Shown here: positions 1,469-32,448 of the stretch, piece after piece
Layout of the letters: each line of letters starts with the position of its first letter
Numbering within the stretch: the stretch's first letter is position 1
NCBI GenBank assembly: GCA_965206645.1
Contig: CBDBKE010000003.1
Coordinates: 64,001 to 128,000 of the forward strand
Reading direction: 5' to 3'
Source of the DNA: Terriglobia bacterium
GTDB taxonomy: Bacteria; Acidobacteriota; Terriglobia; JAJPHL01; JAPKYU01
Length of the DNA stretch: 64,000 nucleotides
Program-made: the position numbers and the translations under genes
The notes under the pieces: model-generated
Databases searched by the model: none
The model's input: only the letters and a program-made list of their open reading frames with translations
Told to the model about the DNA's origin: nothing

Positions 1469-2748
1469 TGACCTGCCGGCTTTCTTCGGACCACCGATTA
1501 CTGGAGAACAGCGCCAGTCGGCATGGTTAAGTCGCTCTCGTGTTCTTCTTGGTCAGCGTGAGCCGGCATCGCCGGCGAGCGCCTACCGTCATCCGAGCCA
1601 GCAGGGAGCTGCGCTTTGAACTCGGCTGGCGTCAGATAGCCAAGGCTCGAGTGCGGTCGCACGTCGTTGTAGTGCCGTCGCCATTGCTCGATCCCCACCT
1701 TCGCGTCCACGCGGTTCCGAAACCACTGCAGGCTCAGATACTCGTCGCGGAACTTCCCGTTGAACGATTCGTCGGTCGCATTCTGCCACGGCTTCCCCGG
1801 CTCGATGAGCGCGGTTTCGATCTGCGCCTGGAGCAGCCACCGGAGAATCGCACCCGCGACAAACTCGGGGCCGTTGTCGGACCGGAGGTAACGTGGGGCT
1901 CCGTGGAGGCTCACGAGCTGCGTGAGCACCTCGATAACGCGCCCGGACCGAATGCCGCCGGCCACGTCGATCGCGAGTGACTCGCGGGTCCATTCGTCGA
2001 CGACGGTGAGGCACTTGAGCGTCTGCCCATTCGCGCAGGTGTCGAACACGAAGTCGTACGCCCAGACGTGATTGACCGCAGTGGCGGGCACCGGGCGGGG
2101 CCGGCTCAGGGCGACCCGGCGCCGCGGCCGCCGCCGAGGCACCTGCAACCCCGCCTGGCGCCAGAGGCGATGGGTCCGGTCCGTGCTCATCGTGTGCCCT
2201 TCGCGTTTTAGGAAAATCCGAATCCGGCGATAGCCGTACCGCGGATACTGCGCCGCCAGACGACGCATCGCGGCCAGCGCCGGGGCATCCCGGTCGACCA
2301 GCCGCGACTGGTAGCCCAGCGTGGACCGTGCGACGGAGAGCAAGGCGCACGCGCGGCGACCCGACAGACCGCGTGCACGTGCATACGCGACCTGCGGCCG
2401 GCGCACGCGTGCGCCTACCATTTTTTTCGGGTGATCTCCTTGAGCACGTCGATCTCCAGATCCCGATCGGCCACCATCTTTTTCAGCCGGCCGTTCTCCT
2501 GCTCGAGCTGCCGCAGCCGCTTCACATCGGCGGGCTCCAACGTGCCGAAGTGTTTCCGCCAGGCGTAGAGCGTCTGGGCGCTGACGCCGTTCTTTTTGGC
2601 CACCTCCGGAACGGGCCGCTGATCGGCCTCGCGGAGGATCGTCACCATCTGCTCTTCGGTAAACCGGGTCTTCTTCATGGCTCCCTCGTTTCTCCGAGGG
2701 CGCCATTCTCTCAGGCTTCAGCTGGTCCGGAAATCGCCAGGCAGGTCA
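1469..2748 (-). mobile_element. IS3-family element (1280 bp), copy 1; orfA 2415-2678, orfB to 1498 via -1 frameshift
   Basis: TG...CA ends with imperfect IRs (TGACCTGCCGGCTTTCTTCGGACCA / TGGTCCGGAAATCGCCAGGCAGGTCA). DDE motifs WAYDF, SDNGPEF, ESFNG. A7 slippery site. No target-site duplication (CTTT/ACCC). Confidence 0.95.
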
Positions 2749-3062
2749 ACCCCATATTGGCCGCTTCGGCTGCACCTGTTGTCACCCGCGTTGCGGCTGC
2801 TTTACCGCCATCCTGTCACTCTCGCCCGGCCTAACCATCGGCTTTCGGTTGTTTGCCCTTCTCCGCTTCCCGTCACCCTCTACGGCCCGCTACGCTGCAT
2901 CCCTTCCGCCAGATGCGGCGCCTGTCAGTCGGGTTGCTTGCCGCTTCGCTGGACCGCGCTGGGAGACGGGGGCGCTGATCCTCCCGGCCAGGGTTCATCC
3001 ATTCCCGCCTGTATGGGTGAGCGGAAATGCTCTAAACCCTAACCTCGAAGGAGAAAAAACAC

Positions 3063-3314
3063 ATGGCAAACCACAGGCCAATTAATGAAATCCGGATCGG
3101 GCGAATCAAGGCAACAATATGGCTCAACGGCACCGAAGATCAGCCGCGCCACAACGTCTCTTTCGGTCGAGTCTACAAAGACGGCGAGACCTGGAAGACC
3201 ACGCACAGCTTCGGGCGCAATGACCTGTTGGTGCTTGCGAAAGTTGCCGACGTGGCTCACACGCTCATCTTGGAGATGGAGAACAAAGACACCGAAACCG
3301 GTGCCGGGTTCTAG
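3063..3314 (+). CDS. Small PC4/Whirly-like putative ssDNA-binding protein typical of mobile elements
   Basis: GAAGGAG RBS. Pattern EIRIGRIKATIWxN...NVSFGRVYKDGETWKTTHSFGRNDLLVLAKV. Followed by a hairpin. Confidence 0.6.
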   Translation: MANHRPINEIRIGRIKATIWLNGTEDQPRHNVSFGRVYKDGETWKTTHSFGRNDLLVLAKVADVAHTLILEMENKDTETGAGF

Positions 3315-3324
3315 TAACCTTCCG

Positions 3325-3350
3325 GGGACGGCGGGGATTCCCGCCGTCCC
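3325..3350 (+). terminator. GC-rich hairpin downstream of the small SSB-like gene
   Basis: GGGACGGCGGG-GATT-CCCGCCGTCCC, perfect 11-bp stem; weak U-tract. Confidence 0.5.
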
Positions 3351-3884
3351 TTACGGGAGGAAAAATATATGAACCAGAAACCTATCCTCAAAACAAACCA
3401 TCTAGGCCGCGATCATGGGCTACTTGCGGGAGCTAGTTGTGCTTCCCGGCTGGCCGCAGTATTGCGACCCCCGGAGAGTTCTGTATCGTCTGGCAGACAA
3501 TGCCCCGGCATCCGGTGGGATGGCGCGCCGGGAGAAGAGCTAGTTTATCGCCTGTATTCCCGTTGCCGGTCCGGAGCCGGTAGAGGTGGACTACCACGAG
3601 GCGTTAACTCAGGTTTGCCAAGGGTTTGGATAACTTCTCTCATATCAACAGCCTACGTTGTCGAGAATCCGCGTAAGGCACTACAAACGCGCGGCAACCG
3701 TTTTTTCTCGGGCTCAAACGATCATCTTCCTCGTCCCGCCGGCCGCTCCCCTCCCACAATGCCCATAAATCAATCACTTACGATGACAAAATCCGGCACT
3801 TGGGGCCAAATTACCCACGATCTTGGTAAAGATGGGTTAAACTGATCGTCAATAAAGCCAGACAGCGAGGACTGGGCTTTCACC

Positions 3885-4337
3885 ATGTTGAACTCTCAGG
3901 AGTCAACGCAAGGAATGAGGATGGCGTTCTATCGATTGTTTTTGTACGTCCCGGAAGAATCATGCTTCGCGTTTCGGATTCGCCTCTGTCCTGATCGGGA
4001 GCAGCTTGGCACTGTTGCGGCACCAACCGCCGTCATTTCGCTATCGAGTGACGAGGCGCTGAGCCTCTGTCTCGCCGAACTCGGCGTCACAGGCTATTCC
4101 CGATTTCGTGACGATACGCTCGCCGGGCCGCGTTTCGACTACATCCAGAACACACCGGAGGATATTGTTGCCGCTATCAGAGCAAAGCCGTTCTCAAGCG
4201 TCAGTCATGTAACCTTAATCGCGAAAGACACACCGCCCAGTGAGATGCGCCGTCGCCTCGACTCCCTACGCGAGAAGATACCCGACACCGTTGAAATCGT
4301 TGAGCCCGCTGAGACAAGTTCGGTTAGGCTCTTATGA
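3885..4337 (+). CDS. Hypothetical protein
   Basis: 150-aa ORF with normal composition; no recognised motif. Confidence 0.45.
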   Translation: MLNSQESTQGMRMAFYRLFLYVPEESCFAFRIRLCPDREQLGTVAAPTAVISLSSDEALSLCLAELGVTGYSRFRDDTLAGPRFDYIQNTPEDIVAAIRAKPFSSVSHVTLIAKDTPPSEMRRRLDSLREKIPDTVEIVEPAETSSVRLL

Positions 4338-4494
4338 AAGGGGATTATAAAGAACGCTTGACGAGGATGGAATCAGCTATGACTTCGCCCAAAAAGCGCG
4401 TAGAGCTTGCAAGGAGCTGACGGCGTGAGTGCAACGAAGTTCTTGTTGGGAAAGAGTCTCGGAAGGATACTACTAAATCGGAGAGAAACCCTAA

Positions 4495-4536
4495 TTATCG
4501 GGTTTCAATTGGAAAGTCGGGGCGTCCTGTTTCCAT
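4495..4536 (-). CDS. Putative micropeptide METGRPDFPIETR
   Basis: AAGGAGGT 6 nt before ATG; TAA stop; paralogous to the next two ORFs. Confidence 0.55.
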   Translation of the reverse strand: METGRPDFPIETR

Positions 4537-4691
4537 TCCATCACCTCCTTTTTTAGTTGTACCCAGGGGGTCGTGTAGCCCTCTGAGCCAGCCTTCCGAG
4601 ACTCATTCCCTACAAGACTGCACCTACCATGATCCGTTGTTCTTGTAGGGGAGAGACCCCGAAAGGATACTAAATGGGGGAGAAACTTTAA

Positions 4692-4736
4692 TTATCGGGT
4701 TTCAATCGTAAAGTTTGCGTATTCCGGTTCGTGCAT
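4692..4736 (-). CDS. Putative micropeptide MHEPEYANFTIETR
   Basis: AAGGAGGT 6 nt before ATG; TAA stop. Confidence 0.55.
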   Translation of the reverse strand: MHEPEYANFTIETR

Positions 4737-4899
4737 TTCCGTACCTCCTTTTTAGTTGTACTCAGGTCGTTCTGTCCGGCCTGAGCCAAGCTTTCGGGGT
4801 CTCTCCCTTGCAAGACTGTACGATACTCTGATCTATTATTGTTCTTGTAGGGAAAGAGTTCGGGAAGGGATTCTGAATTGGAGAGAAACTCACATTTAC

Positions 4900-4938
4900 T
4901 TATCGGGTTTCAATTGGACAGTTAGGTCGTGGTTCCAT
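4900..4938 (-). CDS. Putative micropeptide MEPRPNCPIETR
   Basis: AAGGAGGT 7 nt before ATG; TAA stop; alternative in-frame ATG at 4944. Confidence 0.55.
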   Translation of the reverse strand: MEPRPNCPIETR

Positions 4939-5018
4939 TTCCATCACCTCCTTTTGTAGAGTACTCGGGTCTTATTCACCCGAGTCATACTTTCGAGGTC
5001 TCTCCACTACAAGATCGC

Positions 5019-5024
5019 ATTATA
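5019..5024 (-). promoter_or_regulatory. Candidate -10 box (TATAAT) reading into the hairpin/micropeptide array
   Basis: Perfect TATAAT 4 nt outside the arm of unit 3. TATCGT lies at the same offset outside unit 2. No clear -35. Confidence 0.4.
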
Positions 5025-5147
5025 TCGGCTATCCAATTTATACCTTGCCGTTAGCGAGCTGTCTGCATTAGGCTGAAGCCTGCTGCAACGAGTCCGCTGA
5101 GTGCTTAAACGCCCAGTGGCCTTAATTTAATAAGGACGATTAATGCC

Positions 5148-5678
5148 ATGCAACGTGAGAATCTGAAGGGAGTCTTGCCGGTAGTCTCGCTGTTACTTTT
5201 TTTGGGTGTGTTGGGATATCTAACCAGAGACCCTTCGGCAAGAGTCCGGCAGCAGTCTACCCAAGAGGAACGAGCCTATCAAGAGAAGTTGAAAGCGATT
5301 CAGGAGCAAGTGCAAGCTCGCGTAAAGAAATACGGGGAACAGCATGAAGCTGAAGAAGCGGCGAAACGGAAGGCTGAAATACGTCGTCGTTTGGAACTGA
5401 TGAATGCCGATCTTTCGGGTATATGGAATACGGGTGTTGGGTGGGCGTACATGTACCCGAATGGAAAGGTAACACTGTACAGTCGTGATTGCACCGTGAA
5501 ACGACAAGCCACATGGAAGTATGAGTACGGGGCTCTGACAATACACCAGAGGCATCTGAACAGGAACTTTCAAATCTCTTTTGCAAACGTCATAGGGTTC
5601 GAGGGGGTTGGCTTGACTTTTGATACGGGTGGGGAATGGATTCGCCTTAGCAAGAAAATGGACGAACGGCTCTGTTGA
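5148..5678 (+). CDS. Hypothetical membrane-anchored protein (N-terminal TM, coiled coil, beta-rich C-terminal domain)
   Basis: Hydrophobic VLPVVSLLLFLGVLGYL; AAGGA RBS. Confidence 0.65.
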   Translation: MQRENLKGVLPVVSLLLFLGVLGYLTRDPSARVRQQSTQEERAYQEKLKAIQEQVQARVKKYGEQHEAEEAAKRKAEIRRRLELMNADLSGIWNTGVGWAYMYPNGKVTLYSRDCTVKRQATWKYEYGALTIHQRHLNRNFQISFANVIGFEGVGLTFDTGGEWIRLSKKMDERLC

Positions 5679-5727
5679 GGCTAGATCTTATTTCCGACAT
5701 TAGGAATTATTTAAACAGGGAGGCGTA

Positions 5728-6051
5728 ATGTCACAAGACGAACGAGATGCCATCATTGGAAAGACTGGTCGACTGTACCAGGCGGAAACGAAAAGGCGGG
5801 CTTGCCTGAAGACGAAGATATCCTCTATAGCTGACGCTCTTAAAATCGTTCAGGAGGCGCTTGACGGCTGCTTCGACTCCGATTCCGATTATGAGTATTC
5901 TGATAAGAAGAGGCTCATCCAGCGCCGTTACGGTGGTCGGCAAGTTGAGTTACCGGCAAGCGAGGAGTTACACCAGGTGTTTCTCGACGTTGCCGCTACA
6001 GAACGTAGGATCGAGGAGCTTAGGCAGCACCCGAGAAAACGGTTCCGATAG
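5728..6051 (+). CDS. Hypothetical helical protein
   Basis: GGGAGG RBS; 107-aa ORF. Confidence 0.6.
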   Translation: MSQDERDAIIGKTGRLYQAETKRRACLKTKISSIADALKIVQEALDGCFDSDSDYEYSDKKRLIQRRYGGRQVELPASEELHQVFLDVAATERRIEELRQHPRKRFR

Positions 6052-6334
6052 CCCCCAGGAATGGAGAGGTGTCTGAAAAAGCTGGTTCTGGAAGCCGAGC
6101 GACGGGCTTTCAGGACCCGGCGAGGACCGCTCGGAGCCCCCAGAGAGAAGAACTGTGCTGGAAGGGCTCAGTTGGAGGCCAATGGTTGTATACTCACGAG
6201 TGCCGGAGGGCCAAAAAACTAATTCCGGCTGAATGAAGTGGATACCCCATTCGCGTGATATAATGGAGCCGGTTTCTATGCCTGCTTCGCTTTTGCGTTT
6301 TGTCAAGACCTGAGCCGAAACCGGACATAGTTCT

Positions 6335-18398: not shown

Positions 18399-21300
18399 TC
18401 AGAAAGGAATCGAGATTCCTAGCATCATGCCTAGATCGATCATGCGGTTGGGGGTTTCCCGCCTGATCCATTCCAATTGGAACTTCGCGGGCTGCGCTGG
18501 CAGCCCGCGAGAAAGCAGGCTGAATTCGGTGCCCACGCGCAGATCGCGCCCATAGTCGGCAAGTTGCAGGCGGCTGTAGGGCGTCAGCAAACCCCGTCCG
18601 CCGAAGATGTCCATCCCGTAGGCCACCTCGCTGCTCGTGCTGGTCTGGGAGGCGTTGGACATGTAGCCCGAGCCCATGGGACGGGTGACCAGGGCCGAGT
18701 TGTTCCACAACGTCGTCCTGCCACCCCCATCGTTTCCGCGCGAAGACATCATCGACAGTTGCAGACCCCGACGTTTCTCCCCCGAGTCCCAGCTTACCTG
18801 CATTCCCAGTCCTAAGTCGCGGTAGTCACTTTCACGCACCAGCAGCATCCGGCCGTGCGACGCGATGCCCAGACCGCCGGCCGCATCCAGATAGCCTAGA
18901 CGGAAGCCGGCTTCGGCTCCAGAACCCCGATCCGCGTCGCCCGCGTCGTGGCGGTACCCAAGTTCTGCCTTAATGCTTAGCGATCTCTCCGCTTCCAGAG
19001 GCTTGTCGTGGACCATTTCCAGCATCATCCGGGTCCGGCTGGCTTGGCCACTTACATTTTCGATGTCCTTCCAAGCTTTGGTTCCGAGGCGTGCAGTGAA
19101 AGAATCTAAAACAACGCCCACCTCCGTGTTGCCCCGCTTGGCCAGCACCGAGCGCATCCCGCCCGAGAACATACGAAAGTCGGAAGCTAAGTCGTGAGCC
19201 CGGCGCGGCTCATTGACATCAACTTCACCTCTTCCCAAGCCTCCAATGACCCACGTACTGAAGCGCTCGTTGGGCTGCCAGTACAGATACGGATGAGCAG
19301 TGTTCATACCATTCCTAAACATCCCATGGACCCCATCGGCGTTGTAATTGATACGAGCAAAGCTTCGCATGAAGGAGAGGCCGACGAGCATCTGTTCGCT
19401 GTTGTAGAAGTCCAGTCCAACGTGAGCGGCCCCCATGACACCGCGATAGTCCATCCCGCCCCGGGTGATATTCCCGTTGAAGTTTTGCAGGTCGCCCTGA
19501 ACCCACAGAGCTACACTCCCACTCCCGTCGTTGCCCCTGGTGCTTTCTCCCATTTGGAGGTTGAAGGAAGCCTGGGAAAAGATCGGTTGTCGAGCCCTTA
19601 TCCCGGAGAACTGGCGAGCCACAAGCGTTGTGTCGGCCGTGGATGTCCTTTGGAGCGTAACGTGCCCGTAGGCCGCTTGGGTGGGCGCGATGCCATAGTC
19701 GGGAGCCAAGGAGTTATGCAAGCTGCCTGGTCGGATCGAGCCCATCGACGGACCAGCGCCCTCGGCCAGCCTGGGGGGTGCGAAGCCGAATCTATCGGCC
19801 TCTGGCATGTGATTTAAAGCACCGGCCCTGCTGAGACCCGAACCGTTGCTGCCGGTCTGGCCGGCAGACAGGCTTCCCCCCGTGTTCGGACCGCGTGCGG
19901 ACAGCCTGTTCCGCATCAACTGGCGCTTGTGCTGGAATCGAGACTGGATCGCCGTCTGCGCGCTATCTCCCACCGAACGGGCAGTTACCGCCAGCAGGAT
20001 CTTCAGCGATGCCGAAAACTGCTCTGCGCTGCGTTGCTGGGTGAACTTCACCGTGGTCTCTGAGGGGTCGCCTTCGCTGACCGCCTCCGGCAGATCCCCG
20101 AATCCAAGGACAATACTCTCGCCCGGATCATCCTCCTGATCCGCCGGCGCGGTCACCTGGAAAGTGACCACGGTCGCGCCGACCTCGAATACGATCGACG
20201 CCGGCACCCCGCCGTAGTCCTGGCTCGTCGCACCTCCTTGCGGCGTCACTACTAGCGGCACTTCCACCCGGCGGTCCGCAGCCGGGGAGATGTTCACATT
20301 GATGCTGGCCGGATCGCCACCTTCGGCAATTGTGTGCTCGGCCCGCGCAAAGCTTACCGCCAGCTCCGGCAGGTCAGCGTCCACGATGGTGAGGGTGGCC
20401 GTGGCCGTCTCACCTTTACTGACCCCCTCCGGCAGCGTCCCGAAGCCCAACTCTATCGTCTCATCGTCGCTGTCGGTGTCCTCGTTGGCCACGATCATGA
20501 AGGTCTTGGAGAGGTCTCCAGGAGCAAAATTCAACGTTCCATCGGTGAGACCGGAAACCGTGTAATCGTCCGCCTCGGTCGCGCCTTGCGGCATCAGCGT
20601 GATCGGAATCGTGAGGTCCTGGTCGGAGGTCCGGTTCAGCATCACCTTCAGCGTCACCGGATCGCCACCTTCGGTCGTGCTGTAGCTCGCCAAGTCGAAC
20701 GCCACCGTCAGGGCCGGCGGAACGTCGTCGTCGGTGATGGTAAGGGTGGCCGTGGCTGTCTCACCTTGGCTGACCCCCTCCGGCAGCGTCCCGAAGCCCA
20801 ACTCTATCGTCTCATCGTCGCTGTCAGTGTCCTCGTTGGCCGCGATCATGAAGGTCTTGGAAAGGTCTCCGGGAGCAAAACTCAACGTCCCATCGGTGAG
20901 ACCGGAAACCGTGTAGTCGTCCGCCTCCGTTGCGCCTTGCGGCATCACCGTGATCGGAATCGTGATGTCCCGGTCGGACGCACGGTTCAGCGACACCTTC
21001 ACCGTCACCGGATCGCCACCTTCCGTCGTGCTGTAGCTCGCCGGGTCGAACGCCACCGTCAGGGCCTGCCTGGGTAGGGTAACCGCATCCCTGACCGCGG
21101 CGGTCGGCTGGCTGGTCACGGCTTCCTCGGTGCCGATGCCGTCGGTGAAGCTCACCGTGACCGTGATCCGCTTGCCGACCTCATTGTTGGTCAGCCTGTA
21201 GCTTAAATCCATTGCCCCGGCAATATTCGTTCCGTCGGCCTTCCACTGATACACGAAGTCGCCCAGGCCGTCGGCATCTTGAATGTCGGTCGTCACTGCC

Positions 21301-24050
21301 GTCAGGGTCTGGCCCACCTGCGGCGCACCGGTAATCCTCGGCTGCCCCGTCGGCGGATTGTTCGGTGTATCGTCGTCGGTGATGGTGAGGGTGGCCGGGT
21401 TGATAGTGGTGATGCCCGAGACTGTGGTGGTCCCGCTCACCGTCACCGTCTCGGAACCTTCCATGGAGGTGTCGTCGTTGGGCGTAAACTGAAAGGTTGC
21501 CGTCCCGCTACCGGCGCTGGCGGGGATGGTGACGTTGAAGGGCTGCACCGGGGTGAAGTCGGCAGTCTGGGCGGTCGCTGCCGCCAAGGTAACGTTCACC
21601 ACCGTGGGCGATGACAGGGTGGCGCTCCCCTGCGGGAAAGCTGCCGTCACCATGATGTCTGTCTCCCCGGCGTTCTCGGCGACGCTGTCGGGACTCACAC
21701 TCAGCTCGATGGTGTCCGGCGGGGCGTCGTCGTCGATGATGGTGAGGGTGGCCGTGGCCATCACACCTTGGCTGACCCCCTCCAGCAGCGTGCCGAAGCC
21801 CAACTCTATCGTCTCATCGTCACTGTCGGTGTCCTCGTTGGCCACGATCATGAACGTCTTGGAGAGGTCTCCGGGAGCAAAACTCAAGGTTCCATCGGTG
21901 AGACCGGAAACCGTGTAATCGTCCGCCTCCGTTGTGCCTTGCGGCATCACCGTGATCGGAATCGTGAGGTTCTGGTTGGACGTCCGGTTCAGCGTCACCC
22001 TCAGCGTCACCGGATCGCCACCTTCCGTCGTGCTGTAGCTCGCCAAGTCGAACGCCACCGTCAGGACCGGCGGGGGTGGAGGTGGGGGCGGGGTAACCGC
22101 CTCCCTGACCGCGTCGGTCGGCAGGCTGGTCACGGTTTCCTCGGTGCCGATGCCGTCGGTGAAGCTCACCGTGACCGTGATCCGCTTACCGACCTCATTG
22201 TTGGTCAGCCTGTAGCTTGAATCCATTGCCCCGGCGATATTCGTTCCGTCGGCCTTCCACTGATAGGCGAAGTCGCCCAGGCCGTCGGCGTCTTGAATGT
22301 CGGTCGTCACCGCCGTCAGGGTCTGGCCCACCCGCGCCGTACCGGTAATCCTTGGCTGCCCCGTCGGCGGATTGTTCGGTGTGTCGTCGTCGATGATGGT
22401 GAGGGTGGCCGGGTTGATGGTGGTGATGCCCGAGGTGGTCCCGCTCACCGTCACCGTCTCGGAACCTTCCATGGAGGTATCGTCGTTGGGCGTGAACTGA
22501 AAGGTTGCCGTCCCGCTACGGGCGCTGGCGGGGATGGTGAGGTTGAAGGGCTGCACCGGGGTAAAATCGGCGGTCTGAGCGGTCGCTGCCGTCAAGGTAA
22601 CGTTCACCACCGTGGGCGTTGACAGGATGGCGCTCCCCTGCGGGAAAGCTGCCGTCACCATGATGCCTGTCGCCCCGGCGTTCTCGGCGACTCTGTCGGG
22701 ATTCACGCTCAGCTCGATGGTGTCCGGCGGGGCGTCGTTGTCGATGATGGTGAGGGTGGCCGGGTTGATAGTGGTGATGCCCGAGGTGGTCCCGCTCACC
22801 GTCACCGTCTCGGAACCTTCCATGGAGGTGTCGTCGTTGGGCGTGAACTGAAAGGTTGCCGTCCCGCTACGGGCGCTGGCGGGGATGGTGAGGTTGAAGG
22901 GCTGCACCGGGGTGAAGTCGGCGGTCTGGGCGGTGGCTGCCGCCAAGGTAACGTTCACCACCGTGGGCGTTGACAGGGTGGCGCTCCCCTGCGGGAAAGC
23001 TGCCGTCACCATGATGCCTGTCGCCCCGGCGTTCTCGGCGACGCTGTCGGGACTCACCCTCAGCTCGATGGTGTCCGGCGGAACGTCGTCGTCGGTGATG
23101 GTGAGGGTGGCCGGGTTGACAGTGGTGATGCCCGAGGCGGCGGTGGTCCCGCTCACGGTGACCGTCTTGTCGCTCTCGACGACGACGTCGTCGGTCGGCG
23201 TCAACGTGAACCTCTCCGTCGCACTCGTCAATCCCTCGGGAATCGTCACCGTCAGGTCATCGACCGTCTCGTAGTCCGTCCCCTCCGTCGCGCTGTCTCC
23301 CGCCTTGCCCACCGCCACCTTCACCGGCGTCGATCCCAACCGCGCCGCTCCGTTCAGCGCCGCCCTCACCGTCACCGTCGTTCCGCCCGCCCCTTCGCTC
23401 ACCGTCATCGGATTCACCGACAACGCCACCCCCGTCGACGCCGTCTCGTCGTCCGTGACTTGCACCTCCACAGGGGCCACACCGTGCAGGGACGGTGGGC
23501 AATTGCTCTTCTCGTCCCACACCTCGTGGGTGATGGTCACAAACTCATCCTTATCATCGTCGTCTTGGAATGCTGTAATATGAACGTTTCGCCATTGTGT
23601 TGGACCCGGGTTGTCAACCGGGTCTCTATCCTGATTGAATTCCCAGCCGACGGACGGCACCCAACGAATGCCTATTCCCTCGCTGTTGTCGTGGTTGCCG
23701 GCGTAGTACACCACTCCGTTGACATGGATCCGTACCCACCAGCCGTCGGCGGCCGGTTGCTCACTGAGCCTAATGTTGTAGGAGAGGGTTTCTCCCTCCC
23801 TGATCGTCAACGTGGACGTCGACACTTGCACTTCCCCTTGCCAGTTGAAGATCGGGGCGTTGTTCTGGGCGTGGACTTGGTGCATGGCGACGCCGGACAG
23901 GAGCGCCAACAGCATGATGGTGGAGGCGACGAGACGCGAGGATCCAAGGACCGGACTCTCTTCCAGTCCAGGAACGGACCTGAAGCAGACAAGTGAGCTA
24001 AACATTTTGGTCAGCCGAATCAATGGATTGGAAACGCTGGGCGCAGGCAT
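18399..24050 (-). CDS. Large repeat adhesin/autotransporter (Calx-beta/Ig-like repeats plus C-terminal barrel)
   Basis: Signal peptide. Repeats ending ATLTIxDDD. Barrel with ALWVQGD, AHPYLYW, LTPYSRL; terminal F. Confidence 0.88.
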   Translation of the reverse strand: MPAPSVSNPLIRLTKMFSSLVCFRSVPGLEESPVLGSSRLVASTIMLLALLSGVAMHQVHAQNNAPIFNWQGEVQVSTSTLTIREGETLSYNIRLSEQPAADGWWVRIHVNGVVYYAGNHDNSEGIGIRWVPSVGWEFNQDRDPVDNPGPTQWRNVHITAFQDDDDKDEFVTITHEVWDEKSNCPPSLHGVAPVEVQVTDDETASTGVALSVNPMTVSEGAGGTTVTVRAALNGAARLGSTPVKVAVGKAGDSATEGTDYETVDDLTVTIPEGLTSATERFTLTPTDDVVVESDKTVTVSGTTAASGITTVNPATLTITDDDVPPDTIELRVSPDSVAENAGATGIMVTAAFPQGSATLSTPTVVNVTLAAATAQTADFTPVQPFNLTIPASARSGTATFQFTPNDDTSMEGSETVTVSGTTSGITTINPATLTIIDNDAPPDTIELSVNPDRVAENAGATGIMVTAAFPQGSAILSTPTVVNVTLTAATAQTADFTPVQPFNLTIPASARSGTATFQFTPNDDTSMEGSETVTVSGTTSGITTINPATLTIIDDDTPNNPPTGQPRITGTARVGQTLTAVTTDIQDADGLGDFAYQWKADGTNIAGAMDSSYRLTNNEVGKRITVTVSFTDGIGTEETVTSLPTDAVREAVTPPPPPPPPVLTVAFDLASYSTTEGGDPVTLRVTLNRTSNQNLTIPITVMPQGTTEADDYTVSGLTDGTLSFAPGDLSKTFMIVANEDTDSDDETIELGFGTLLEGVSQGVMATATLTIIDDDAPPDTIELSVSPDSVAENAGETDIMVTAAFPQGSATLSSPTVVNVTLAAATAQTADFTPVQPFNVTIPASAGSGTATFQFTPNDDTSMEGSETVTVSGTTTVSGITTINPATLTITDDDTPNNPPTGQPRITGAPQVGQTLTAVTTDIQDADGLGDFVYQWKADGTNIAGAMDLSYRLTNNEVGKRITVTVSFTDGIGTEEAVTSQPTAAVRDAVTLPRQALTVAFDPASYSTTEGGDPVTVKVSLNRASDRDITIPITVMPQGATEADDYTVSGLTDGTLSFAPGDLSKTFMIAANEDTDSDDETIELGFGTLPEGVSQGETATATLTITDDDVPPALTVAFDLASYSTTEGGDPVTLKVMLNRTSDQDLTIPITLMPQGATEADDYTVSGLTDGTLNFAPGDLSKTFMIVANEDTDSDDETIELGFGTLPEGVSKGETATATLTIVDADLPELAVSFARAEHTIAEGGDPASINVNISPAADRRVEVPLVVTPQGGATSQDYGGVPASIVFEVGATVVTFQVTAPADQEDDPGESIVLGFGDLPEAVSEGDPSETTVKFTQQRSAEQFSASLKILLAVTARSVGDSAQTAIQSRFQHKRQLMRNRLSARGPNTGGSLSAGQTGSNGSGLSRAGALNHMPEADRFGFAPPRLAEGAGPSMGSIRPGSLHNSLAPDYGIAPTQAAYGHVTLQRTSTADTTLVARQFSGIRARQPIFSQASFNLQMGESTRGNDGSGSVALWVQGDLQNFNGNITRGGMDYRGVMGAAHVGLDFYNSEQMLVGLSFMRSFARINYNADGVHGMFRNGMNTAHPYLYWQPNERFSTWVIGGLGRGEVDVNEPRRAHDLASDFRMFSGGMRSVLAKRGNTEVGVVLDSFTARLGTKAWKDIENVSGQASRTRMMLEMVHDKPLEAERSLSIKAELGYRHDAGDADRGSGAEAGFRLGYLDAAGGLGIASHGRMLLVRESDYRDLGLGMQVSWDSGEKRRGLQLSMMSSRGNDGGGRTTLWNNSALVTRPMGSGYMSNASQTSTSSEVAYGMDIFGGRGLLTPYSRLQLADYGRDLRVGTEFSLLSRGLPAQPAKFQLEWIRRETPNRMIDLGMMLGISIPF

Positions 24051-26848: not shown

Positions 26849-26989
26849 GCGACTAACTCTAGACTCCGGCCCAGCCCGCGTCAAGGCCGCCAGCTTTTGT
26901 TTCTTTGGTGTTTCTTGGCGTTTCTTGACGCCGCCCAGATCTAAGCACAGCACCCTTGCGCGGCGCGCAACTTTGGGGTAGCATTCCTC

Positions 26990-27180
26990 CGAACATTGGG
27001 TTCCCGGTGTCCGCCGGATGGTCCGGCGGCATGGGAAGCTGGTGCAAATCCAGCACGGCCCCGCCACTGTGATTGCCGAGGACGTGCCCCGAACGCCACT
27101 GTCCGCAAGGATGGGAAGGCGGGCACGGCCGTTCCCGAGAAAATCGGGAGTCAGGCATAAGTCAGGAGACCGGCCGGGAA
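26990..27180 (+). ncRNA. Cobalamin riboswitch
   Basis: GGGAAGCTGGTGCAAATCCAGCACGGCCCCGCCACTGTGA...GCCACTG...GGGAAGGC...AGTCAGGAGACCGGCC (B12 box); upstream of a btuB-like gene. Confidence 0.93.
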
Positions 27181-27216
27181 TCTCACTCGTTCCCCTGTCG
27201 AGGGATAGGAGGAGAG

Positions 27217-31293: not shown

Positions 31294-32448
31294 TTAGGGG
31301 CCCTTAGCCCGTTGCCTGCTCGGGCCTATGGTTCTGTGGCCACTGAAGGACGGCGGCCTTGGTGGCCGAGATGTCGCCCGGGGCCGAGATGTCGCCCGGG
31401 GCCGAGATACCGCCGGGGGGGCAGCCTGGGTGGTCCGACCTCCCCTGGAGGACCATCCCCTAGGGTAGGAAGGGTTCTTACGCACAGATTTCGGGCCTTT
31501 GGTCCATTGCTTGCTCGGGCCTATGGTTTTGCGGCCACCGAAGGACGGCGGCCTTGGTGACCAAGATGTCGCTGGTGGCCGAGATGTCGGTGGTGGCCGA
31601 GGTATCGCCGGGGGGCCAGCCTGGGTGGTCCGACCTCCCTCGGAGGGCCGCACCTCAGGGTGGGAAGGGTTCCGACGCCCATAGTTCGGACGAGGGCAAC
31701 GGTAGACGTAACCAAAGGGCGATCGGATTGGGTAGCCGTACGGCAGGAAGGTGTAGTAGCCCAAGCCGGAATGGAAGAACCACTGGCTGGACCAGAAGGA
31801 GGAGCGTTGATTTCGGAAACTATTGACCGCGGCATAGGAGGCGGTGGCCAATTCCGAGGACCGGACCCGATTCCAATGGTCAAACTCATCCAGGTCCTTC
31901 CGGTTGTACTTGACTGCCCCGCTGGCAGTTCCTGCCGCGGCCAACTCCACGAACCTCCCCCCCTTGAGGGGACCCTTCTTCCCGGGCACTTGCAACTTGC
32001 CTTTTTCGACATGGACGCGCAAGGAGTCCCGAGCAGCTTCAAAGCGGTATAGCCCGGTGCGCTTGATGGGAATCGTGTGTTCCCGCCATAGCATCACAAT
32101 GGAAGTTCCCTTCCGAGTTTCGTTCACTTCCAGCATGGCGGTGCCCGAAACCAGCTCGACGCGAACGTCTGTGAGCCGCGAGGAGAGCAGCCGGACTGTG
32201 GAGTGGCGGTCCAGGCGCAGAAAACTGCCCGGAGTCAGAAGCAGTTCCAGGCGTCCCCGCCAGGTTGTTACGGTCTGGCCTTCGGCGATTTGCCGCTCGA
32301 CCTTCCCGTCCGGGCTGCTGGGCAGCGTCACCGCGCCCTGCCAGTAATTCACGTAACCGGCACGCGCCGAGATGACGTGTTGCGCAGCCACGGGCGCTGG
32401 GCCAGTGAACCATCCCAAAAGAACCAATGCAAAGACTAGCCTTCTCAT
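31294..32448 (-). CDS. Secreted FecR-domain protein with duplicated Pro/Arg-rich tail
   Basis: Signal peptide, ISARAGYVNY, GRLELLLTPGSFLRL, DEFDHWNRVRS. Confidence 0.75.
   Translation of the reverse strand: MRRLVFALVLLGWFTGPAPVAAQHVISARAGYVNYWQGAVTLPSSPDGKVERQIAEGQTVTTWRGRLELLLTPGSFLRLDRHSTVRLLSSRLTDVRVELVSGTAMLEVNETRKGTSIVMLWREHTIPIKRTGLYRFEAARDSLRVHVEKGKLQVPGKKGPLKGGRFVELAAAGTASGAVKYNRKDLDEFDHWNRVRSSELATASYAAVNSFRNQRSSFWSSQWFFHSGLGYYTFLPYGYPIRSPFGYVYRCPRPNYGRRNPSHPEVRPSEGGRTTQAGPPAIPRPPPTSRPPATSWSPRPPSFGGRKTIGPSKQWTKGPKSVRKNPSYPRGWSSRGGRTTQAAPPAVSRPRATSRPRATSRPPRPPSFSGHRTIGPSRQRAKGP

Follow-up and report, generated by a model that had tools for sequence, protein, structure and literature searches.

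A tandem array of three hairpin units with candidate self-locking micro-ORFs on the minus strand in a Terriglobia bacterium

The window analyzed here, 64,000 nucleotides of contig CBDBKE010000003.1 from a Terriglobia bacterium, contains a hairpin array of three head-to-tail units within positions 4439-5016. Every block of the array occurs three times, at spacings of 197-208 bp, in agreement with an earlier note on this DNA, made from the letters alone, that had described three units at a period of about 200 bp. The array lies in a stretch of 47-55% GC within a 4.4-Mb genome of 61% GC. The units and their parts are given below, with P1 denoting the closing stem and CM the covariance model.

4439-4619: unit 1 (type A), closing stem P1 and inner hairpins; CM score 182.9 bits
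4441-4466: unit 1, 5' arm of P1, 26 nt, 92% complementary to 4592-4617
4592-4617: unit 1, 3' arm of P1; duplex with the 5' arm -42.6 kcal/mol (plus strand) and -42.3 kcal/mol (minus strand)
4639-4817: unit 2 (type B), closing stem P1 and inner hairpins; CM score 187 bits
4641-4665: unit 2, 5' arm of P1, 25 nt, 92% complementary to 4791-4815
4791-4815: unit 2, 3' arm of P1; duplex with the 5' arm -50.0 kcal/mol (plus strand) and -41.2 kcal/mol (minus strand)
4841-5016: unit 3 (old A/B chimera), weak stem of its own, inner conserved blocks intact; CM score 151.6 bits
4843-4868: unit 3, 5' arm of P1 (type A); best partner is the 3' arm of unit 1
4987-5014: unit 3, 3' arm of P1 (type B); best partner is the 5' arm of unit 2
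4495-4509, 4692-4706 and 4900-4914: invariant 15-nt core TTATCGGGTTTCAAT; three exact copies in the genome, all in the array

The units have diverged considerably, with pairwise identities of 128/176, 122/170 and 118/170 (69-73%). Two blocks are invariant across them, the 15-nt core and a 10-nt block, ACCTCCTTTT, which runs on through a spacer to CAT. Read on the minus strand, the core comprises the codons for IETR and a stop, and it also supplies one side of a hairpin, P3, along with its loop. In P1, the outermost 10-12 bp are conserved across the units and the inner part of the stem varies. Since the spacers between units (~22-27 bp) can also be aligned and are homologous, the array derives from tandem duplication of a ~200-bp unit and not from separate insertions.

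Folding of each unit on both strands was compared with that of dinucleotide shuffles. The minimum free energy (MFE) of unit 1 is -83.4 kcal/mol on the plus strand (z -7.4) and -80.2 on the minus strand (z -7.0); the corresponding values are -82.2 (z -7.7) and -68.1 (z -6.6) for unit 2, and -58.4 (z -2.8) and -53.5 (z -4.0) for unit 3, which folds only moderately better than its shuffles. The consensus fold consists of a 24-pair closing stem P1, a helix P2 (ACUAAA/UUUAGU), a helix P2a (GGAG/CUCC), the hairpin P3 (GAAAC...GUUUC), a variable region and a terminal hairpin P5. When the three units are aligned on this structure, 90.5% of 168 cells are paired and both sides have changed at 12 of the 56 pairs; the shuffles average 6.9 such pairs (12 is reached by 1 in 500), and slid controls have 36-56% of cells paired and 0-4 pairs changed on both sides. 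Because pairing and both-side changes exceed those of the shuffled and slid controls, we conclude that the structure of the array is real and under constraint.

This covariation signal is essentially one independent comparison, that of unit 1 with unit 2, as unit 3 is a mosaic. At sites that separate units 1 and 2, unit 3 follows unit 1 over its 5' two-thirds and unit 2 over its 3' third. Its 5' arm pairs with the 3' arm of unit 1 at -38.8 kcal/mol and its 3' arm with the 5' arm of unit 2 at -39.0, compared with -27.0 for its own stem (-42.6 in unit 1, -50.0 in unit 2). The simplest history to be read from these sequences would be an A-B(-A-B) array in which an old A/B recombination gave rise to unit 3. 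The earlier note had assigned a closing stem of ~25 bp to every unit and had stated that the letters of the stem change while pairing is kept. Both statements hold for units 1 and 2, where the 25-bp stems are near-perfect and the inner halves differ and still pair, and less well for unit 3 with its weak stem.

On the minus strand, each unit contains a short open reading frame (ORF) preceded by a Shine-Dalgarno (SD)-like site:

4495-4536, minus strand: micro-ORF 1, METGRPDFPIETR and stop
4543-4550, minus strand: SD-like AAGGAGGT of unit 1, 6 nt 5' of the ATG
4692-4736, minus strand: micro-ORF 2, MHEPEYANFTIETR and stop
4743-4750, minus strand: SD-like AAGGAGGT of unit 2, 6 nt 5' of the ATG
4900-4938, minus strand: micro-ORF 3, MEPRPNCPIETR and stop
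4946-4953, minus strand: SD-like AAGGAGGT of unit 3, 7 nt 5' of the ATG
5019-5024, minus strand: TATAAT, 4 nt before the first base of the stem of unit 3

Translation returned the three peptides originally read, METGRPDFPIETR, MHEPEYANFTIETR and MEPRPNCPIETR, and the SD-like 8-mer was found 6-7 nt before the ATG in every unit, as first described. The ORFs comprise 12-14 codons, all end in IETR and are the sole ATG ORF common to the three units on either strand; the peptides carry several charged residues and have no hydrophobic stretch. The TATAAT was likewise located just outside unit 3, and the hexamers homologous to it are TATCGT in unit 2 and GTAGGT in unit 1. In the predicted minus-strand fold, GGAGG of the SD pairs with a UCUCC directly behind P3, and P1 closes the unit.

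The host genome makes use of SD sites. Core motifs are most frequent at -12 relative to long-ORF starts, the position at which the GGAG of the units also lies, and an SD core is present at 27.6% of 2191 starts vs. 14.3% in a control stretch. The 8-mer AAGGAGGT occurs 137 times in the 4.4-Mb genome, counting both strands. Of the other genomic sites where it is combined with an ATG, 19 of 27 precede ORFs of at least 60 codons, compared with 1115 of 3000 random ATGs (37%). The 3' end of the genome's 16S rRNA is ...GGAUCACCUCCUUUCU, 12 nt of which are complemented by units 1 and 3; this 12-mer has three occurrences in the genome, namely the end of the 16S gene and these two units. On the plus strand the SD-like site of unit 1 reads ACCUCCUU and lies within the 12-nt match to the 16S tail.

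Conservation follows the outline of the ORFs. A conserved block made up of SD, spacer and ATG ends at the ATG, and conservation returns at the last five codons. In all three units the aligned ATG and the conserved TAA share a frame that no other stop interrupts. Indels within the ORF measure 3 and 3 nt, and those outside it 3, 2, 5, 1, 5, 1 and 1 nt (alignment read by hand). A rough estimate of chance, multiplying the probability that the frame is kept (1/9) by that of meeting no stop (about 0.25-0.3), gives about 0.03. The earlier observation that ORF lengths differ by multiples of 3 is true but automatic for any ORF; the real point is the conserved in-frame ATG and stop.

The array is flanked by two genes on the plus strand:

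3921-4337, plus strand: upstream gene, 138 aa in the protein collection; 3885 is a possible earlier start of the ORF
5148-5678, plus strand: downstream gene, 176 aa, with an N-terminal hydrophobic helix, a long helix and a beta-rich C-terminus

Both ORFs are real genes, with gene-like GC content by codon position and two relatives each in the protein collection; one relative of the 176-aa protein (P0122) is 90% identical to it. Neither gene matched anything in 100 relatives, 400 genomes of the phylum or viral contigs, and neither protein belongs to a Pfam, PHROG or PADLOC family or has a usable Atlas match. A structural model of the 138-aa protein (pLDDT 74.5) resembled no PDB fold at E ≤ 0.001 among the 489 matches listed (best E 0.27, TM ≤ 0.34), and that of the 176-aa protein (pLDDT 52.9) was too poor for a fold search. 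The region 3290-6016 is unique in the genome, and its coverage in metagenome contigs corresponds to the depth of this single organism only. The sequencing runs containing the array stretch were those of the probable source sample and of one other study, the latter with identical sequence at low depth; none of the runs is recorded as RNA.

The explanation we favor, tentatively and at somewhat less than even confidence, is that each unit may act as a small self-locking translation cassette on the minus strand, whose micro-ORF would be locked by an anti-SD lying downstream of it. The lock and the end-to-end stem are suggested by sequence complementarity and predicted folds. A very strong SD-like sequence and a 6-7-nt spacer lead to the ATG of a 12-14-codon ORF, the end and stop of which (AUU GAA ACC CGA UAA) double as one arm and the loop of P3, and the second arm of P3 leads straight into the UCUCC anti-SD. 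In the predicted fold the anti-SD sits on the SD, the UG of the AUG is held in a short helix and the ~25-bp stem joins the ends of the unit. An RNA folded in this way would be translationally silent. Its translation could occur only co-transcriptionally or once the lock has been released, whether through cutting of the long stem, through melting or through a ribosome that is already engaged on the transcript. What counts may be that translation takes place, or it may be the conserved C-terminal end, rather than the variable N-terminal residues. Tandem duplication produced stem types A and B together with the old A/B recombinant, and the array lies in a strain-specific island that would have been acquired horizontally.

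If the micro-ORFs are translated, few SD-led genes with an RNA lock of their own would be smaller. The design, a hydrophilic peptide with a variable N-terminus and a fixed C-terminus and an anti-SD right behind the stop, would lie outside described classes of small ORFs and would give the little-explored field of bacterial micropeptides a further example, from an uncultured lineage. The practical value is limited, this being a single locus in one strain for which no homologues were found. A bolder proposition, which we consider rather unlikely, is that the array exemplifies a kind of gene not seen before: an array of ~200-nt self-locking mini-mRNAs, with an ORF that would be switched on only when both lock and 25-bp stem open, and a product or act of translation serving a role other than that of a membrane toxin, e.g., at the ribosome or in termination, or in control of the flanking orphan genes.

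The start-site block, the in-frame indels and the SD spacing are the reasons for favoring minus-strand micro-ORFs, a reading that appears supported beyond chance but short of proof. Several observations weigh against it. The micropeptide interpretation of the earlier note gains from the SD-ATG block, the 3-nt indels and the ORF being the only shared one, but not from the IETR codons: the search for synonymous changes that the note had proposed, here a comparison of the three units, found none, as none of the 15 positions of the four codons and the stop differs between units. IETR is therefore conserved at the nucleotide level and not at the amino acid level. Differences in the variable codons, counted by hand, number 2/2/2 by codon position between units 1 and 3 and 5/2/3 between units 1 and 2; being spread evenly over the three positions, they indicate no purifying selection on the peptide. 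The peptides are hydrophilic, are 12-14 residues long and could be assigned to no known family. The two flanking genes share the plus strand, and the minus strand shows no visible partner gene. The TATAAT has no good -35 element and was not called by a promoter scan, unit 1 has no -10-like hexamer, and a terminator scan of the array found none on either strand. SD and anti-SD are complementary, so that any GGAG/CUCC helix on the plus strand inevitably places an SD on the opposite strand. The array was, moreover, singled out from a very large scan, so that some coincidence is to be expected.

The choice of strand brings in an alternative that we regard as quite unlikely, namely that the array specifies a structured non-coding RNA on the plus strand. 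Its units would be multi-helix domains with long stems for processing (RNase III-type) or stabilization, transcribed by read-through out of the 138-aa gene in the direction of the 176-aa gene, or from a start of their own; the ACCUCCUUUU block, with its 12-nt match to the 16S tail in units 1 and 3, would pair with GGAG in cis or, if opened, with SDs in trans, and the minus-strand ORFs would be by-products. G-U pairs and folding energies lean weakly this way. The plus-strand MFE is the lower one in 3/3 units, the consensus energy is -57.3 on the plus strand vs. -52.1 on the minus strand, and the stem of unit 2 is stronger on the plus strand by the values listed above (-50.0 vs. -41.2 kcal/mol), but the composition-corrected z-scores are about equal between strands. 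G-U cells outnumber A-C cells by 17 to 6 in the raw count and by 10 to 2 after the chimeric P1 of unit 3 and the poorly supported helix 6 are dropped; several are shared by descent, and the excess shrinks to ~6-8 vs. 2 independent events (hand count), which alone is not significant. P3 keeps 7 pairs on the plus strand (two of them G-U in units 2 and 3) and 5 on the minus strand. The P2a/P3 core is built from the three most conserved blocks, which are complementary to one another. The two flanking genes, real and both on the plus strand, have no terminator between them; the scan of the array also revealed no per-unit terminators and no recognizable plus-strand promoter. The CCUCC is paired and not exposed in the predicted fold, and there is no match to an Rfam family. 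A plus-strand RNA would also mean that the optimal ATG spacing, the indels that keep the frame and its freedom from stops came together by accident, with an estimated chance of about 0.003 for all of them. If it were nonetheless correct, the array would be an unclassified structured RNA bearing a 12-nt copy of the 16S 3' tail.

It is unlikely, in our view, that the array is instead a decayed and tandemly duplicated palindrome resembling a miniature inverted-repeat transposable element (MITE), e.g., an internal-deletion derivative of an insertion sequence (IS). Such a remnant would have retained terminal inverted repeats, the SD and ATG of a transposase and its last codons; palindromy would be kept at the DNA level by co-evolving ends or hairpin-templated correction, and there would be no present RNA or peptide function, or merely incidental effects on neighboring genes. 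The outer 10-12 bp of the stems are indeed conserved like terminal inverted repeats with a variable inner part, and ~180-bp units with ~25-bp arms fit elements of the Correia/ERIC type. The array also sits inside a low-GC island of a genome in which mobile DNA abounds (the adjacent IS3-family element has about 35 copies, and the repeat at 6027-6230 about 25), and an SD with a truncated ORF between inverted repeats might be expected from an IS deletion derivative. On the other hand, the genome holds no dispersed copy and no IS with these ends, all three exact occurrences of the 15-mer core are in the array, and near-matches to the 12-mer at the ends are at chance level. The homologous spacers point to tandem duplication, with no target-site duplications seen. 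Dead DNA at 69-73% identity would not be expected to retain unchanged blocks of 10 and 15 nt, an unbroken frame and stems with compensated changes. The array is further absent from about 650 related genomes searched with blastn or the covariance model, and a 22-nt core pattern is unmatched in GTDB species representatives. Were the array a decayed palindromic repeat after all, it would illustrate the ease with which such repeats mimic small genes.

Signals present on both strands might also be combined in a two-strand module, with a minus-strand micro-ORF mRNA controlled by an overlapping plus-strand transcript or the reverse, similar to a type I toxin-antitoxin (TA) system with no membrane toxin. 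Tandem small-ORF loci under antisense control are a known design, and small hydrophobic proteins repressed by small RNAs (sRNAs) are described in PMC2887945, but the peptides of the array are not hydrophobic, and we consider this arrangement very improbable.

The self-locking cassette that we favor shares features with several known systems. Type I TA loci comprise tandem repeats, SD-led small ORFs and structure-locked mRNAs. Like ldr/rdl, ibs/sib and hok/sok, the array repeats a unit of a few hundred bp in tandem, with a small ORF led by an SD in every copy, and has an mRNA that would be held by end-to-end pairing and structure hiding the SD, which in the array is a prediction (GGAGG/UCUCC and P1). 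In contrast, toxins of this family are hydrophobic and membrane-active, and the peptides of the array are short (12-14 aa) and charged, a distinction already drawn in the earlier note; the array also has no recognizable antisense RNA gene, sequence similarity or homologues. The type I family is touched upon in PMC2887945 and PMC8309996.

The likeness to MITE-like repeats (Correia/CREE, ERIC, bcr1) consists of ~150-180-bp units, ~25-bp inverted repeats with conserved outer ends, long hairpins when transcribed and a -10-like box at one end. According to PMC2649163, elements of the Correia type can give rise to promoters at their ends and can also bind RNase III. The array, in contrast, occupies one locus, where three copies follow one another head to tail with homologous spacers; its inner stem covaries between units, and it has no dispersed copies or target duplications. 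When it was assessed as a member of this class, conserved terminal inverted repeats were found, and dispersed copies, target duplications and a partner IS were not found in the genome; elsewhere in the genome, the end motif has only chance-level matches with one mismatch.

The CcsR/cuckoo sRNAs carry an anti-SD motif in hairpin loops, and each has its own terminator. The array resembles CcsR1-4, the 'cuckoo' RNAs of alpha-proteobacteria, in its tandem, homologous, structured units and in a C/U-rich, anti-SD-like motif on the plus strand. It differs in the cis pairing of its CCUCC and in the 25-bp stem that encloses each unit, and it has neither terminators nor an Rfam match. An sRNA of this sibling type was rejected, with CCUCC paired in the predicted folds and no terminator-like site within the array. 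Repeats of type III TA systems measure ~36-45 nt. As in ToxIN, a non-coding repeat array (4439-5016) lies directly upstream of a same-strand gene of ~170 aa (5148-5678), but the repeats of the array are ~200 nt long and the 176-aa neighbor has no ToxN, Pfam or PADLOC match. A type III system was rejected on this unit length and on both neighbors being outside any Pfam, PHROG or PADLOC family.

Other candidates were set aside as well. Neither a Y RNA/Ro module nor a GGA sponge of the CsrB/RsmZ kind is indicated, as PF05731 (TROVE) and PF02599 (CsrA/RsmA) each had 0 matches in the 97.9%-complete genome, in searches where controls matched. The sole RVT_1 match, relevant to a retron non-coding RNA, is on another contig, and a tRNA or tmRNA was ruled out for the array. 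Judged by eye, the ends of the stems do not match integron attC core sites (no search for an integrase was made), and no core of a known ribozyme was seen, in keeping with the absence of an Rfam match.

The earlier note had called the system undescribed, which stands within the searches made: no Rfam match and no homologue emerged from the genomes and collections covered. A known Rfam family or a dispersed MITE with target-site duplications, either of which the note had named as evidence against a micropeptide system, was not found, and tandem duplication was seen instead. A comparison with Rfam 15 yielded nothing within 4439-5016 at E values up to 10. About 650 related genomes were covered in all, with two samples of the phylum (400 and 150 genomes) that overlap. 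In the array's own genome, blastn and the covariance model (R1) returned the three units only. With blastn, 0 of 60 relatives matched, and 34 of 400 phylum genomes had matches of just 18-35 nt (E 8e-4 to 0.1) that nowhere spanned a unit; several of these are suspected to fall on the anti-SD block, judging by where they lie in the query. R1 applied to 19 of these short-match loci gave 3 matches of at most 13.6 bits. Among 100 relatives R1 had one match, of 28.8 bits (genome G053), which was judged to be chance and corresponds to a long hairpin with perfect pairing that lies between two converging ORFs and partly overlaps them; among 150 phylum genomes it had two, both plain palindromes of 76-81 nt. 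The covariance-model search proposed in the earlier note thus recovered no true homologue from the own genome, the 100 relatives, the 150 phylum genomes and 74 loci around relatives of an 83-aa gene described below (1.07 Mb, 0 matches).

Exact-pattern scans of large collections detect near-identical cores only. They returned 0 matches in contigs of GTDB species representatives and 0, 0 and 0 in viral contigs, and the three stretches found in metagenome contigs were not matched by R1 and are attributed to chance. Phage and plasmid collections contained no match to the array. Nothing like it was found in the literature, in a limited search at the level of abstracts.

Several features surround the unique island. 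The 83-aa gene just mentioned (3063-3314, within 2967-3314 on the plus strand) belongs to a conserved family with no Pfam match and is preceded by ~96 bp of conserved upstream DNA. It has 17 copies in the genome and 226 relatives in the protein collection; the 74 loci are in metagenome-assembled genomes (MAGs) of Acidobacteriota and Planctomycetota, often several per genome, and the gene is probably tied to a mobile element. Tandem repeats near these relatives, and near another copy in the own genome, are unrelated to the array or are protein repeats. Non-coding-looking tandem repeats of 124 and 236 bp lie upstream of relatives in other MAGs (L053, 6597-7119; L069, 5284-5723), and their sequence is unrelated to that of the array. 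A GC-rich hairpin (3324-3350, plus strand), with no terminator call, follows right behind the 83-aa gene and precedes the unique island. On the other side of the island, 6017-6230 is a dispersed repeat of ~110-210 bp with about 25 genome copies at 77-98% identity. The IS3-family element beside the island (1469-2748, minus strand) contains ORFs for HTH_Tnp_1 (2415-2678) and rve (1498-2706), which a frameshift probably joins, and its copies, about 35 at >99% identity, are spread across four contigs.

Farther along the window, tandem repeats at 20385-21066, 22383-23137 and 31298-31672 have periods of 351, 351 and 195 bp with 84-95% matches; because all periods are multiples of 3, these are probably protein repeats. 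A cobalamin riboswitch aptamer at 26988-27192 on the plus strand (109.2 bits, E 1.9e-26) is the sole Rfam match in the window at the gathering score.

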